Origin: Clostridiales bacterium
Lineage (GTDB): Bacteria > Bacillota > Clostridia > Christensenellales > Borkfalkiaceae
Length of the DNA: 64,000 nucleotides
Assembly: GCA_015069465.1 (NCBI GenBank)
Contig: SVIO01000006.1
Span: forward strand, 24,618 to 88,617
Reading direction: 5' to 3'
In this document: piece by piece, positions 13,006-17,666 of the stretch
Layout of the letters: the number at the start of each line of letters is the position of its first letter
Position numbering within the stretch: position 1 is the stretch's first letter
Translations under genes and position numbers: made by a program
Notes under the pieces: generated by a model
Seen by the model: the letters and a program-made list of their open reading frames with translations, nothing else
Told to the model about the DNA's origin: nothing
Database searches by the model: none

Positions 13006-14796
13006 TTATTTATTGTTATAAATAACCGTTACGCCTTCGTATGATTTTAGTCCTTTAACTGCTATTTGGTCACCACCTATTATTTGGTCGAAAGGAATTA
13101 AAAGCATATGATTATCTACACATTGTGAATGGTCGTAATCTGCTGGAAGTCCGTCATATGAATATCCTGCTTCAACACGCATACCACGTCCATTATTTAG
13201 ACCTGGCGTTGGTTCACAGTAATGATAGTTTGCCCATTCGCCATATGTAACGGTTACATTATTACAAGTAACTTCATACTGAGTCATATCAGGATAGTTT
13301 GTGCCGTCAATTGTAGTTGTTTTTGCGCAACGACCTATTAACATACCACACATACGATAGTTATAATAATCATAAGAAGCTGTACAATCGTTATAAACGT
13401 CTAAACGACAAGCAATATTAACATTTTCAAAATTATATGTTGCACCTGGCTCAGCTTGACCAACAACACCACCTACACTGCTATCAAAAGAACCCCAAAG
13501 ACCAGCAAGAACAACATCTGATTTGATTTCTATATTTTTAAATGTATAGTCGCCTGCACCAGACCAACCGATTATGCCACCATTTCCATTATTGTAAGTT
13601 GCAAATTGGCTGTCTTCAAGTGTAATATTTTCAAATACGCAAGTACCACTTGCACTACCTGTAATACCCCCGACATCACCACCTTCAATATAACTCTCAG
13701 CACCTTTAATCGTTAAGTTTTTAATAGTTGCATTATTTACATTGCCAAATAAACCATAAGAACCATATGCTCCCCATTCATAACCAAGGTCCCAACCATT
13801 TTGATATAGATTAGAGATTACTTTTCCATTGCCGTCAAACACGCCTTCAAAAGTACCATCTTTAGATTTGTCTCCAATTGGTCTAAAAGTTAAAGGGTCT
13901 CCATCAGCGCTAGGGGTTGTATCCTCGCAGTAAAGGTCGATATCGTTAGTTAGTGTAAATGTAACATCCTTAAAAGTAACATCTCCAGAAACAAGTTCTG
14001 AAAGACCAGCAAGTTGCTCTGCAGTGCCAATATCATAATGAGTTTGTGGGTTTGAAGGGTCATACCAAGAAGTGTCTGCAGTGCCATCCCACTTTTCTGG
14101 AAGTGCTGGATATTCTGCATTTTGGTCATAATCGTTACCAAAAGTATCTTCTTCAAAATCATATTGAGTTGCATAAACTGAAATGTTAAAGTCAGTGCCT
14201 ATAGATAAATTATTATATTCATTACCTACATTTTCTGGCATTTTAAATGCAATACTAACGGCTATGCTCCCAACAGCTTCATTGTTAGAGTTGATAGGGA
14301 TGGTTGTGCTAGATGGGAGCAAAACGCCGTAAGCAGCCCCATCTGGGTCTGCAATCAAATCAGCTAGCGTTCCAACGTTTGTTGCGCTAGTAATTGATTC
14401 ACTGGTAATTGTTTGTGCTTCATTTAAAAAATATACGTCAATAACATCTGCCAATTTTGAAACTGGACCATTTGGTGATATAATTATTTTATACTTAAAT
14501 GCAAGAGTGCCTTCGTTCGCAATTTTAATATGTTTTGCTTCAACATAGCCCGGTTCCCAATTAGAATAGTTAAAGATAGGGTCTCCATTGAATTCAATCC
14601 AATTTGTATCAACAGAAGGGTCATTACTACCTTCCATCCAATAAGCGTTTACATCTAGTGTACCACTAGCAATGATGTTGTTGCTAGATACACTTGAATC
14701 TGTAAACCAAGCAAATGTTGTGCCTAAAAGCATTGTAAAGCTAATTACAATAGCAACCAAACTTGCTAACAATGTTTTTATTCCTTTTTTCTTCAT
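13006..14796 (-). CDS. secreted TasA/camelysin-like protein with a SipW-type signal peptide and a C-terminal GLUG-like beta-helix domain
   Basis: The N-terminus MKKKGIKTLLASLVAIVISFTMLLGTTFAWFTDSSVSSNNIIASGTLDV matches the SipW-cognate signal pattern (GTFAxFxD...GTLD) of TasA/CalY. The C-terminal part has WDGTADTSWYD...IGTAEQLAGLSELV...FEGVFDGNGKVISNL and GG(I/V)xG repeats typical of GLUG-type repeats. Confidence 0.8.
   Translation of the reverse strand: MKKKGIKTLLASLVAIVISFTMLLGTTFAWFTDSSVSSNNIIASGTLDVNAYWMEGSNDPSVDTNWIEFNGDPIFNYSNWEPGYVEAKHIKIANEGTLAFKYKIIISPNGPVSKLADVIDVYFLNEAQTITSESITSATNVGTLADLIADPDGAAYGVLLPSSTTIPINSNNEAVGSIAVSIAFKMPENVGNEYNNLSIGTDFNISVYATQYDFEEDTFGNDYDQNAEYPALPEKWDGTADTSWYDPSNPQTHYDIGTAEQLAGLSELVSGDVTFKDVTFTLTNDIDLYCEDTTPSADGDPLTFRPIGDKSKDGTFEGVFDGNGKVISNLYQNGWDLGYEWGAYGSYGLFGNVNNATIKNLTIKGAESYIEGGDVGGITGSASGTCVFENITLEDSQFATYNNGNGGIIGWSGAGDYTFKNIEIKSDVVLAGLWGSFDSSVGGVVGQAEPGATYNFENVNIACRLDVYNDCTASYDYYNYRMCGMLIGRCAKTTTIDGTNYPDMTQYEVTCNNVTVTYGEWANYHYCEPTPGLNNGRGMRVEAGYSYDGLPADYDHSQCVDNHMLLIPFDQIIGGDQIAVKGLKSYEGVTVIYNNK
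14119..14796 (-). repeat. paralogous N-terminal module (copy A) shared with 15486..16160
   Basis: The first ~225 codons of both TasA-like genes align without large gaps. By eye roughly three quarters of residues are identical, and nucleotide similarity is visible (e.g. aaaccaagcaaatgttgtgcctaaaagcattg versus aaaccacgcaaatgttgtgcctaaaagcattg). Boundaries are approximate. Confidence 0.7.
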
Positions 14797-14807
14797 AGTT
14801 ATAACTC

Positions 14808-16160
14808 CTATTTAACTTTTACAACATTAGAAAGATTGCTTGTAACTAATGTGCTTATATTTTGTGCATTGAGTTTAACCCCATTTAATGTACAATTTTC
14901 AAATGAAACATTTGCACGAGCATCAATCTGAAAACCTTCTTCAAAGTTACAATTTACAAATCTTGTAGGTGCGTATGGACGGCAGTAAGCATATCCGTTG
15001 CCTTCACCAAAAATACAGTTATAAAATTCTGCATCGCCTAAAGTTGCGGCATAACTTGTCCAACCCATAAATGTGCTGTTTTTTGCTGTTAAACCTTGAT
15101 ACATACCTTGGTCGCAACTAATTGTATATGTTGTGCCATCAATAATAACATTTTCAAGCACTACACGGCCACTTACACTAGAGTTATGGTTGATAAACAC
15201 ACCACGGAACGAACCTGTTATTTTAATATTTTTAATTGTTCCACCTGTTGTGTTAATGCCACTATCCCAAGTGCCACCTGCACCTTTAATGTCTAAAGTG
15301 TTTCCATTTCCATCAATTGTTTGAAGATTGGTTATGTTTATACCAGTTGTACCATATGCATTACTCATACTTGCAGGGTCAATTTTAATGTCGCTTGTTA
15401 AACCAATTACATCATTATTTCCTGAATTTTTAATTGCTTCAATAAGAGAATCTGCATTTGCAACATAATAATCTGCTACAAATACATTTTCATCATATTG
15501 ATTGCCAAAAGTATCTTCTTCAAAATTATATTGAGTTGCAGAAATTACAATATCAAAGGTTGTGCCAATAGATAAACCAAAATAATCATTACCAGCATCT
15601 TCTTGCATTTTAAACGCAATACTAACACTAACGCTTTCAACGATTTCCATTTTAGCATTATTTGGTGTTGTGTTTTTTGGTAATAATATACCATATGCAG
15701 CTCCATCAGGGTCTGAAATTAAATCTGCCAATGTGCCAACTTTTGTTGCATTTGTTATAGAATTACGAGTAATAGCTTGTGCTTGATTTATAAAATATAC
15801 ATCAATTACATTTGCTAATTCACCAACAGGTCCATTTGGTACGATAGCCAAGTTATATTTAAATGCAAGCGTACCTTCGTTTGAAATTTTAATGTGTTTT
15901 GCTTCGACATAACCTGGTTCCCAATTAGAATAATTGAAAATTGGACTACCATCAAATTCTATCCAATTATTTTCGTCAGTTGGGTCTTGATTGCCTTCCA
16001 TCCAGTAAGCATTTACATCAAGATTACCACTTGAAATAATGTTGTTATTTGACGCGATTGAATCAGTAAACCACGCAAATGTTGTGCCTAAAAGCATTGC
16101 AAAACACACTACAATTGCCATTAAGCTTGCCACTAAAGTTTTAATGCTTTTTGTTTTCAT
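14808..16160 (-). CDS. secreted TasA/camelysin-like protein with a SipW-type signal peptide and a different C-terminal right-handed beta-helix-like domain
   Basis: N-terminus MKTKSIKTLVASLMAIVVCFAMLLGTTFAWFTDSIASNNNIISSGNLDV. The C-terminal half has repetitive segments (GGTIKNIKITGSFRGVFINH, VVLENVIIDG, FVNCNFEEG, VSFENCTLNG) typical of pectin-lyase-fold beta-helices. Confidence 0.78.
   Translation of the reverse strand: MKTKSIKTLVASLMAIVVCFAMLLGTTFAWFTDSIASNNNIISSGNLDVNAYWMEGNQDPTDENNWIEFDGSPIFNYSNWEPGYVEAKHIKISNEGTLAFKYNLAIVPNGPVGELANVIDVYFINQAQAITRNSITNATKVGTLADLISDPDGAAYGILLPKNTTPNNAKMEIVESVSVSIAFKMQEDAGNDYFGLSIGTTFDIVISATQYNFEEDTFGNQYDENVFVADYYVANADSLIEAIKNSGNNDVIGLTSDIKIDPASMSNAYGTTGINITNLQTIDGNGNTLDIKGAGGTWDSGINTTGGTIKNIKITGSFRGVFINHNSSVSGRVVLENVIIDGTTYTISCDQGMYQGLTAKNSTFMGWTSYAATLGDAEFYNCIFGEGNGYAYCRPYAPTRFVNCNFEEGFQIDARANVSFENCTLNGVKLNAQNISTLVTSNLSNVVKVK
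15486..16160 (-). repeat. paralogous N-terminal module (copy B) shared with 14119..14796
   Basis: See copy A. This looks like a tandem gene duplication with divergent 3' halves. Confidence 0.7.
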
Positions 16161-16179
16161 AGTTCTTTCTCCTATATAT

Positions 16180-17382: not shown

Positions 17383-17400
17383 ATTTGTTAGTATAGTCAT

Positions 17401-17429
17401 ATTATATGTGTTTTGCACATATTTGTCAA
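17401..17429 (-). promoter_or_regulatory. sipW operon promoter, exact TTGACA-N17-TATAAT
   Basis: The minus strand reads TTGACAaatatgtgcaaaacacaTATAAT. Confidence 0.6.
17404..17422. promoter_or_regulatory. palindrome ATATGTG-N5-CACATAT occupying the sipW promoter spacer (candidate repressor operator)
   Basis: Perfect 7-bp inverted repeat lying between the -35 and -10 of the sipW promoter. Confidence 0.5.
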
Positions 17430-17459
17430 ATAAAATTTATAGTTTGTTAAAATATTTTT

Positions 17460-17666
17460 ATGAGATTTGGGGAAAATTTTAAGAAATTAAGGCTTGAAGC
17501 GAATTTGTCTCAAAAAGATGTCGCTAAAAAACTTGATATTTGTCAGTCTAATATTAGCGATTGGGAAAATGATATTTCTAGGCCTGAATATGAAAAGTTA
17601 ATACAACTTTCAAAGATTTATTGTGTTTCGCTATACGAACTTTTAGGTATAGACGAAAATTTTTAA
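17460..17666 (+). CDS. small XRE-family helix-turn-helix regulator (68 aa)
   Basis: MRFGENFKKLRLEANLSQKDVAKKLDICQSNISDWENDISRPEYEKLIQLSKIY is a canonical HTH_3/XRE domain. The gene is divergent from sipW. Confidence 0.85.
   Translation: MRFGENFKKLRLEANLSQKDVAKKLDICQSNISDWENDISRPEYEKLIQLSKIYCVSLYELLGIDENF

Follow-up and report, generated by a model that had tools for sequence, protein, structure and literature searches.

Within the 64,000-nucleotide (nt) stretch of contig SVIO01000006.1 from a Clostridiales bacterium analysed here (the window), a compact operon encodes a SipW-like signal peptidase and two proteins in which a TasA-like module is fused to a solenoid domain, and a small XRE-family regulator is encoded divergently from it. 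We are highly confident of the identity of these parts and of the repression of the operon by the XRE protein. We also lean, with much more modest conviction, towards the whole chain that they suggest, namely that an XRE-repressed operon builds a surface or extracellular structure, a filament included, from TasA-superfamily subunits carrying adhesin-like solenoids. An earlier note on this DNA, made from the sequence alone, had proposed four genes, all of which are borne out by the list of open reading frames (ORFs; lengths in amino acids, aa):

16180 to 17358, minus strand: sipW-like signal peptidase gene, 392 aa (ORF)
14808 to 16160, minus strand: TasA-like::Pectate_lyase_5 gene, 450 aa (ORF)
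13006 to 14796, minus strand: TasA-like::beta-helix gene, 596 aa (ORF)
17460 to 17666, plus strand: divergent XRE/HTH_3 regulator gene, 68 aa (ORF)

The earlier note had described this system as self-contained, and it does comprise a dedicated SipW, cognate TasA-family substrates, a divergent XRE gene and beta-helix cargo. The three minus-strand genes are separated by gaps of 19 and 11 nt, and both TasA-like genes are preceded by an AGGAG ribosome-binding site, features that mark a tight operon. As had been proposed, the genes share one exact-consensus promoter and one terminator, a hairpin:

17429 to 17401, minus strand: sipW operon promoter, TTGACA-17-TATAAT, 12/12 consensus
12979 to 12956, minus strand: intrinsic terminator closing the operon, 10-bp stem with 4 GC pairs, then CTTTTTGTTA

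The same promoter is present in about 16 related loci, and the terminator lies 27 nt past the stop codon of the 596-aa gene. Judging from gene callers and homologues, the true start of sipW is probably M5, at position 17346, which gives a protein of 388 aa.

Both substrates are placed in the TasA superfamily by the combination of a Pfam match, a fold match and a signal motif. Their N-terminal modules score as TasA/camelysin proteins, as the earlier note had expected: Peptidase_M73 (PF12389) matches the 450-aa protein with 31.4 bits and the 596-aa protein with 31.8 bits, against a gathering score (GA) of 22.5, and the TasA-like genes of 10 related loci also lie above this score. The SipW-cognate signal claimed for both substrates (TIGR04088) was recovered in the 596-aa protein (20.9 vs a cutoff of 19), whereas the 450-aa protein, with the same motif, falls just below the cutoff (15.7). 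The two N-termini are nearly the same, with GTTFAWFTDS...SGxLDV in both, and the N-modules are 72-73% identical. The module was delimited in the 596-aa protein as follows:

14101 to 14796, minus strand: N-terminal TasA-like module of the 596-aa protein, aa 1-232 (alignment of 34 modules, AlphaFold2 (AF2) model)

It consists of a signal peptide (aa 1-29), a putative donor strand (aa 30-44) and a jelly-roll (aa 49-211), and it ends in a conserved acidic tail, ATQ..E.D.FGN.YD. In the alignment of 34 N-modules, A29, N40, G45, E81, N94, L115 and Q211 are invariant, and WFTD, PG and K101 nearly so. Signal peptide cleavage is predicted between TFA and WF, after Ala29, a site placed by likeness to A27/A28 of TasA. 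TasA is cleaved before Ala28 (PMC9674648).

The AF2 model of the 596-aa protein, built from 58 homologues, has a predicted local distance difference test (pLDDT) score of 82.4. Its N-terminal half shows a signal-peptide helix, a segment of pLDDT below 50 (residues 24-43), a beta-sandwich (49-211) and an acidic linker (about 212-235) that is poorly ordered yet conserved in sequence. The best match of the model in the PDB by Foldseek is the TasA fibre 8aur_A (E-value (E) 8.6e-4, probability 1.0, target-normalised TM-score 0.42), and the next matches are the donor-strand pilins CfaB, FimF and FimG. Residues 24-43, disordered in the monomer model, fall in one of the best-conserved segments of the module, and their modelled disorder is what would be expected of a donor strand. 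Low model confidence is likewise described for residues 28-38 of BsaA, its donor-strand segment (PMC11580942).

The C-terminal half of the larger substrate is a solenoid:

13009 to 14091, minus strand: right-handed beta-helix domain of the 596-aa protein, aa about 236-596 (AF2)

The proposal that the TasA-like module is fused to beta-helix domains stands on the AF2 model of this protein, in which the beta-helix extends from about 250 to 530 (strands 319-530), is followed by a C-terminal cap and has a pLDDT mostly above 90. The window domain has no Pfam match, GLUG (Glug E 8.3), Beta_helix and Peptidase_M26_N included, and a GLUG assignment is thus not supported for it. Of 19 relatives, 12 match Peptidase_M26_N below threshold; the Peptidase_M26_N and GLUG matches of relatives are all sub-threshold (17-21 bits vs GA 27.7). 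A profile of the domain retrieved only a chance match, Hbl B, from the PDB. With 63 invariant columns among 19 orthologues, this domain is the most conserved part of the protein, far above the N-module. The cargo of the 450-aa protein is a Pectate_lyase_5 domain (PF20585; 34.3 bits vs 24.3; aa 232-339, positions 15144-15467), which Pfam describes as a putative pectate lyase-like adhesive domain. The domains joined to the TasA-like module in sister loci are of the Beta_helix, GLUG, Pectate_lyase_5 or BspA-type leucine-rich repeat (LRR_5) kind, and this variety shows the N-module behaving as a general carrier of adhesin-like cargo.

The sipW-like identity of the first gene holds: its product matches TIGR02228, the archaeal/endoplasmic reticulum (ER)-type signal peptidase I model (MEROPS S26B), above the cutoff (60.1 bits vs 51.85; aa 26-189, positions 16792-17283). 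On the Bacillus SipW equivalog model NF046067 it scores 72.5 bits, below the cutoff of 190, and the sequence comparison thus identifies the same type of enzyme as Bacillus SipW and not an orthologue-level match. Among 46 peptidase homologues, S63 (in SDSMS), H116 (in THK) and D143 are invariant. From motif context rather than direct alignment, we infer that these residues are the counterparts of the catalytic Ser47, His87 and Asp106 of B. subtilis SipW, which form a Ser/His/Asp arrangement and not a Ser-Lys dyad (PMC8767453). In the AF2 model (pLDDT 85.7), which Foldseek matches to SpsB and LepB, transmembrane (TM) helices at 10-42 and 173-208 flank a beta-rich catalytic domain (54-160); one more helix follows, then a disordered linker (232-253) and finally a compact alpha+beta domain (260-392). 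The earlier note had described an extra domain in this peptidase, and it proved to be real, conserved and confidently folded:

16183 to 16596, minus strand: extra C-terminal domain of the peptidase, aa 255-392, alpha+beta fold, very basic, pLDDT 85-97

The catalytic domain has to lie outside the membrane, which should place the extra domain, behind the second TM helix, in the cytoplasm; the positive residues past that helix agree with this orientation. Its Foldseek matches are YjbR 2fki (target-normalised TM-score 0.62, probability 0.96) and YdhG/DUF1801 2oc6 and 9t2w (0.50), with E-values of 0.12-0.16 that are weak because the query was a multi-domain model. Pfam has no match to the domain, and in the NCBIfam scan of the full-length protein no match falls on it. 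At an E-value of 1e-3 or better, it occurs in at least 2,653 representative proteins or clusters (50% identity); a Pfam scan of seven large proteins that contain it returned DUF2357 and Beta_helix only, which suggest no function. Fused to the peptidase, it was found in 215 relatives, all from uncultured Clostridia, with either one copy (proteins of about 390 aa) or two (about 550 aa). It is missing in six loci that are otherwise alike, and is thus optional in the family. Flexibly tethered after the second TM helix, the domain probably gives the peptidase a second, non-proteolytic role, by analogy with the cytoplasmic tail of B. subtilis SipW. A second, cytoplasmic function of SipW has precedent (PMC8767453, a review citing Terra 2012). 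Elsewhere, proteins that reach about 2,800 aa contain 1-7 copies of the domain in tandem, and smaller, stand-alone proteins of about 230 aa consist of a TM helix, an acidic linker and the domain, in this order; one JGI record labels a protein with the domain 'predicted transport protein'.

The 68-aa regulator is a bare helix-turn-helix (HTH) protein (HTH_3, E 1.9e-13, aa 8-61), and its best NCBIfam match, below the cutoff, is the phage RstR repressor family. It had been called loosely reminiscent of SinR control, and the likeness survives in so far as both are repressors, here putatively, of a matrix operon. In architecture it is not a SinR homologue, as the SinR-type C-terminal oligomerisation domain is absent from it; it is closer to an operator-binding repressor of the Cro/CI type. 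Its probable binding site and its own promoter lie in the intergenic region that it shares with sipW:

17404 to 17422, no strand assigned: putative XRE operator, palindrome ATATGTG-N5-CACATAT, located after the sipW -35 element and overlapping the -10 element
17445 to 17453, plus strand: putative XRE promoter, extended -10 element TGtTAAAAT, 6 nt 5' of the ATG (sequence inspection)

The operator motif has one match in the window and, across 19 loci, is confined to the XRE-sipW intergenic region. The composite TTGACA-aATATGTG-N5-CACATATAAT is kept in about 16 loci, many of which have a second copy adjoining the XRE gene. Loci whose XRE proteins are only 32-38% identical have another palindrome at the same promoter position: TCCTACA-N3-TGTAGGA in two of them (L005 and L008), and TTTTAACTAAA...TTTAGTTAAAA at the sipW promoter in two more (L004 and L025). 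This covariation of regulator type and palindrome argues that the XRE protein binds there and represses the operon, and the pairing of XRE with sipW, together with the in-promoter operator, is conserved in about 20 genomes. From this comparative evidence, the 68-aa protein is very probably the repressor of the sipW operon. Most loci also keep the reverse complement of the XRE extended -10 element, ATTTTAACA, at the end of the intergenic region that lies next to the XRE gene. The distance of only 6 nt between this element and the ATG suggests that the XRE transcript is leaderless.

The operon is not peculiar to one genome. With one genome scanned for each species, 30 loci were recovered, mostly in Christensenellaceae and other Clostridia metagenome-assembled genomes (MAGs) from ruminant and human guts. 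As the earlier note had anticipated, the genes are conserved together: the order of a divergent small XRE gene, sipW and a TasA-module::beta-helix gene of the 596 type is kept in about 26 of these, and the divergent XRE gene is present in 23 of 26 related loci. A second TasA-like gene sometimes stands between sipW and the 596-type gene. The 596-aa protein is identical to E7372_03755, a 'hypothetical protein' of a Clostridiales bacterium MAG (NCBI), and has more than 2,500 relatives. Its following sipW across loci makes the 596 type the conserved core partner, while the 450-aa Pectate_lyase_5 type, whose C-terminal domain occurs in only 4 related loci, is by this distribution an optional accessory substrate. 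The suspicion that the architecture was not already characterised also held: we found no account of a TasA-module::beta-helix/sipW system in the collection of papers searched, and a search combining Christensenellaceae with camelysin gave unrelated Christensenella papers only.

Taken together, these parts suggest the following mechanism. The 68-aa HTH protein, bound to ATATGTG-N5-CACATAT in the core sipW promoter, would keep the operon off, a step that the comparative evidence supports well. Once repression is lifted, the three proteins would be made and both TasA-like proteins exported by the Sec pathway. The ER-type peptidase of the operon, with Ser63, His116 and Asp143 outside the membrane, would then, going by family membership, cut after Ala29, between TFA and WF, and thereby free some 15 conserved N-terminal residues (WFTDSSVSSNNIIAS) as a strand. 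This strand could insert into the jelly-roll of the next subunit by donor-strand exchange, the mode known from TasA and BsaA, so that the TasA-like modules would form the backbone of a filament from which the beta-helix domains, of the 360-aa type and the Pectate_lyase_5 type, would project outward. The projecting domains would serve as binding modules, probably for glycans or surfaces, and the two paralogues, with N-modules 72% identical, may co-polymerise. We infer fibre formation from single-chain structure models, the conservation of the strand and precedents in related systems. In TasA and BsaA, residues 28-38 are the inserting donor strands (PMC9674648, PMC11580942); BsaA with a C-terminal FAST fusion is still secreted and displayed at the surface, and C-terminal cargo is therefore tolerated (PMC11580942); and TasA and CalY of B. 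cereus co-assemble into heterofilaments (PMC13082335).

Two further features of the N-modules bear on such an assembly. Among the 34 modules, N40, which lies in the strand, and E81 never vary, and K101 is kept in at least 90%; TasA has Lys at the position of E81 and presumably Ala at that of N40. These three residues might be the counterparts of the BsaA isopeptide triad N35-E56-K74; in such 'exchange-and-lock' subunits, the Asn belongs to the donor strand, and the catalytic Glu and the acceptor Lys to the subunit that receives it. Paralogues of one locus resemble each other more over their first 60 residues (73-95% in several pairs) than over the rest, for example 95% vs 56% in L014, which points to gene conversion or to a constraint that both N-termini share. 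In L010, L014, L016 and L029, the first 60 aa of the paired TasA-like genes, which cover the signal peptide and first strands, are 82-95% identical and the remainder 29-82%. The most specific form of the proposal, in which a donor-strand filament bears a solenoid (beta-helix or LRR) on every subunit, an E81-catalysed bond locks N40 to K101, and the basic domain of SipW couples processing to an intracellular partner, is tentative, and we regard it as doubtful in this full form.

Several observations weigh against a filament. A plain, short major subunit of the TasA type is missing from the window locus and from most related loci, so any filament would have to consist wholly of 45-65 kDa subunits, and to our knowledge nothing known has that form. 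On inspection and with no formal search, no anchoring device was noticed: the operon showed no TapA-like gene, and the substrates neither an LPXTG motif nor a C-terminal TM segment. The likeness to B. subtilis TasA is marginal in sequence: the profile of the 34 N-modules placed TasA (5of1 and 8aur) as the top two PDB sequences, at E-values of 0.06-0.15 only. The equivalog models are likewise well under their cutoffs, that of TasA (NF046066) with 16.1 vs 450 bits, and that of Bacillus SipW as given above. By sequence, a close kinship to B. subtilis TasA is not supported. A direct sequence search of the three operon proteins against the PDB gave nothing at an E-value of 1 or better.

The same lack of a short major subunit fits a reading in which nothing polymerises. 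The jelly-roll would then be a stalk or sorting module for SipW processing, and the products would be monomeric adhesins, secreted or retained at the surface. The far stronger conservation of the C-terminal beta-helix, compared with that of the N-module, also fits and points to selection acting mainly on the cargo. Set against this are the post-cleavage strand, strongly conserved and yet unfolded in the model, the polymerisation by donor-strand complementation of all structurally characterised members of the TasA superfamily (10.64898/2026.01.04.697558), and the dedicated peptidase, for which an ordinary secreted monomer would offer little reason. We consider this explanation unlikely, and it is the one among the alternatives that survives best.

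A second alternative takes the beta-helix domains to be enzymes (polysaccharide lyases, hydrolases or epimerases), in which case the operon would secrete carbohydrate-active enzymes and build no structure. In favour of this, the host inhabits a herbivore gut, and the C-terminal domain has invariant Asp, His, Cys and Arg residues; many of its invariant residues, however, are Gly, Trp, Tyr and Phe, fitting a structural or binding role. The weak Foldseek matches of the beta-helix part include the AlgE4 epimerase, the fucoidan lyase FdlA and a polygalacturonase, beside the L. reuteri SRRP adhesin, but the E-values are 0.045 or higher and the TM-scores low. The Pfam scans and the PDB profile search gave no match to a catalytic family, Pfam calls PF20585 a putative adhesive domain, and the cargo in sister loci includes the BspA-type LRR, which is no enzyme but a binding module. 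We therefore find it improbable that the operon serves mainly to export enzymes, and keep the solenoids as adhesin-like cargo. A prophage or mobile-element operon, with the XRE protein as a phage-type immunity repressor unconnected to sipW control, would accord with the RstR match, but we rejected this origin as extremely improbable on gene context and conservation, as the operon is flanked by housekeeping genes of the chromosome (for a pot-type ABC transporter, a radical SAM enzyme and an ABC exporter), no island stands out in GC content, the XRE-sipW pair and in-promoter operator are kept in about 20 genomes, and the operator tracks the regulator type.

Among the closest known counterparts of the window operon is the biofilm matrix operon sipW-bsaABC(RSD) of C. 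perfringens, which also has sipW first, followed by TasA-family paralogues with SipW-type signals, lacks TapA and belongs to a Clostridia host. BsaA polymerises by donor-strand exchange and requires SipW (PMC7395162, PMC11580942). In contrast to BsaA, a single-domain protein of about 23 kDa, the window subunits carry beta-helix domains of 220-360 aa, and instead of the two-component activator BsaRS of the bsa operon the likely regulator is the divergent 68-aa XRE repressor. Unlike the window peptidase, SipW of C. perfringens has no large cytoplasmic domain reported. The earlier note had regarded the lack of a TapA-like gene as a departure from the tapA-sipW-tasA paradigm; the gene is indeed absent, but this is normal outside B. 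subtilis, as TapA is a feature of that species and the sipW-bsaA operon of C. perfringens has none (PMC7395162, PMC11580942).

With tapA-sipW-tasA of B. subtilis and sipW-tasA-calY of B. cereus, the window operon shares an ER-type SipW with Ser/His/Asp, TIGR04088 signals and a TasA jelly-roll (PMC9674648, PMC13082335, PMC8767453). A putative donor strand directly follows the cleavage site in both cases (TWA/AFND in TasA, TFA/WFTD in the window proteins, the slash marking the cut), an HTH repressor is found in both (SinR in Bacillus and, putatively, the 68-aa XRE protein here), and the heterofilaments of B. cereus are likewise made of two paralogues. Unlike the Bacillus operons, that of the window has no TapA or CapP accessory protein, only a marginal likeness to TasA in sequence, and solenoid cargo on its subunits; unlike SinR, its XRE protein has no C-terminal oligomerisation domain. 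The cytoplasmic tail of B. subtilis SipW is about 20 aa long, whereas in the window family its place is taken by a linker with one or two folded domains of about 130 aa.

The combination of a pilin-like module, donor-strand or acceptor, with a separate binding domain also recalls FimH of type 1 pili and the role proposed for the archaeal AbpB (PMC9245690), and Foldseek sets the window N-module near chaperone-usher pilins. However, FimH-type systems have a single tip adhesin on a plain shaft, whereas the window locus has no plain shaft subunit, and its pilin-like module is N-terminal, which reverses the order. The cargo resembles the GLUG/Peptidase_M26_N beta-helix of streptococcal IgA1 proteases and Gram-positive surface proteins in being a right-handed beta-helix with repeated GG[IV][IV]G turns; the 596-type beta-helix opens with a cap, W.G..D.SWY ... 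AEQLAGL. Unlike the copies in IgA1 proteases, that of the window is under the Pfam threshold and has no metalloprotease domain attached. The differences from known systems are thus a solenoid on every substrate, a folded domain fused to the peptidase, a minimal XRE protein with an in-promoter operator, and a host range of uncultured gut Clostridia.

TasA-superfamily filaments have so far been characterised mainly as plain, single-domain subunits from Bacillus, C. perfringens and a few archaea. The present locus stands for unannotated proteins that number in the thousands among uncultured Clostridia of gut and rumen, Christensenellaceae-like lineages included. In these proteins, the TasA module serves as the N-terminal carrier of exchangeable adhesin-like solenoids and is paired with a dedicated SipW and a cognate repressor. 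The parts and their logic are familiar; the carrier-cargo design and the unannotated peptidase domain are unstudied yet widespread. If these proteins do polymerise, they would represent a new, sortase-free and high-valency display of binding domains by Gram-positive gut bacteria, with a bearing on attachment to plant fibre, mucus and partner microbes, and a natural template for engineered display fibres. A decorated filament of this kind, if true, would be a modular display scaffold distinct from both sortase pili and plain TasA fibres. The extra peptidase domain, as a large family without a Pfam match, offers a handle on the poorly understood non-proteolytic second function of SipW.

Two further hairpins accompany the regulatory region and the XRE gene:

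17363 to 17386, minus strand: hairpin and U-run within the sipW 5' leader, close upstream of the start codon (11-nt arms, 91% complementary)
17739 to 17765, plus strand: bidirectional terminator 3' of the XRE gene, 12-bp stem then T-run

The leader hairpin is a candidate attenuator and may act on top of repression by the XRE protein. It takes a clear terminator-like form in L009, L015 and L018 but is weak in the window, and some loci do not have it. In another locus (L026, 3672-4558), an extra gene stands between the operator-bearing promoter and sipW and makes the transcript longer. The terminator at 17739-17765 is strong and is common to the XRE gene and a convergent potD-like gene. Rfam returned no riboswitch or known RNA; its sub-threshold small RNA matches lie only on this terminator and are terminator artefacts. 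A second XRE-family ORF (22525-23061, minus strand, 178 aa) is located just past the pot operon; it is 31% identical to the 68-aa regulator over the HTH, and we saw no tie between it and the sipW operon. Adjoining the operon on its other side, a protein of 430-450 aa is encoded at 11589-12941 on the plus strand. It has no Pfam match, contains ExxH-type motifs (EEEHVTQYE and EISHLHK) reminiscent of ferritin-like di-iron proteins, and neighbours the operon on contigs of the same species only.

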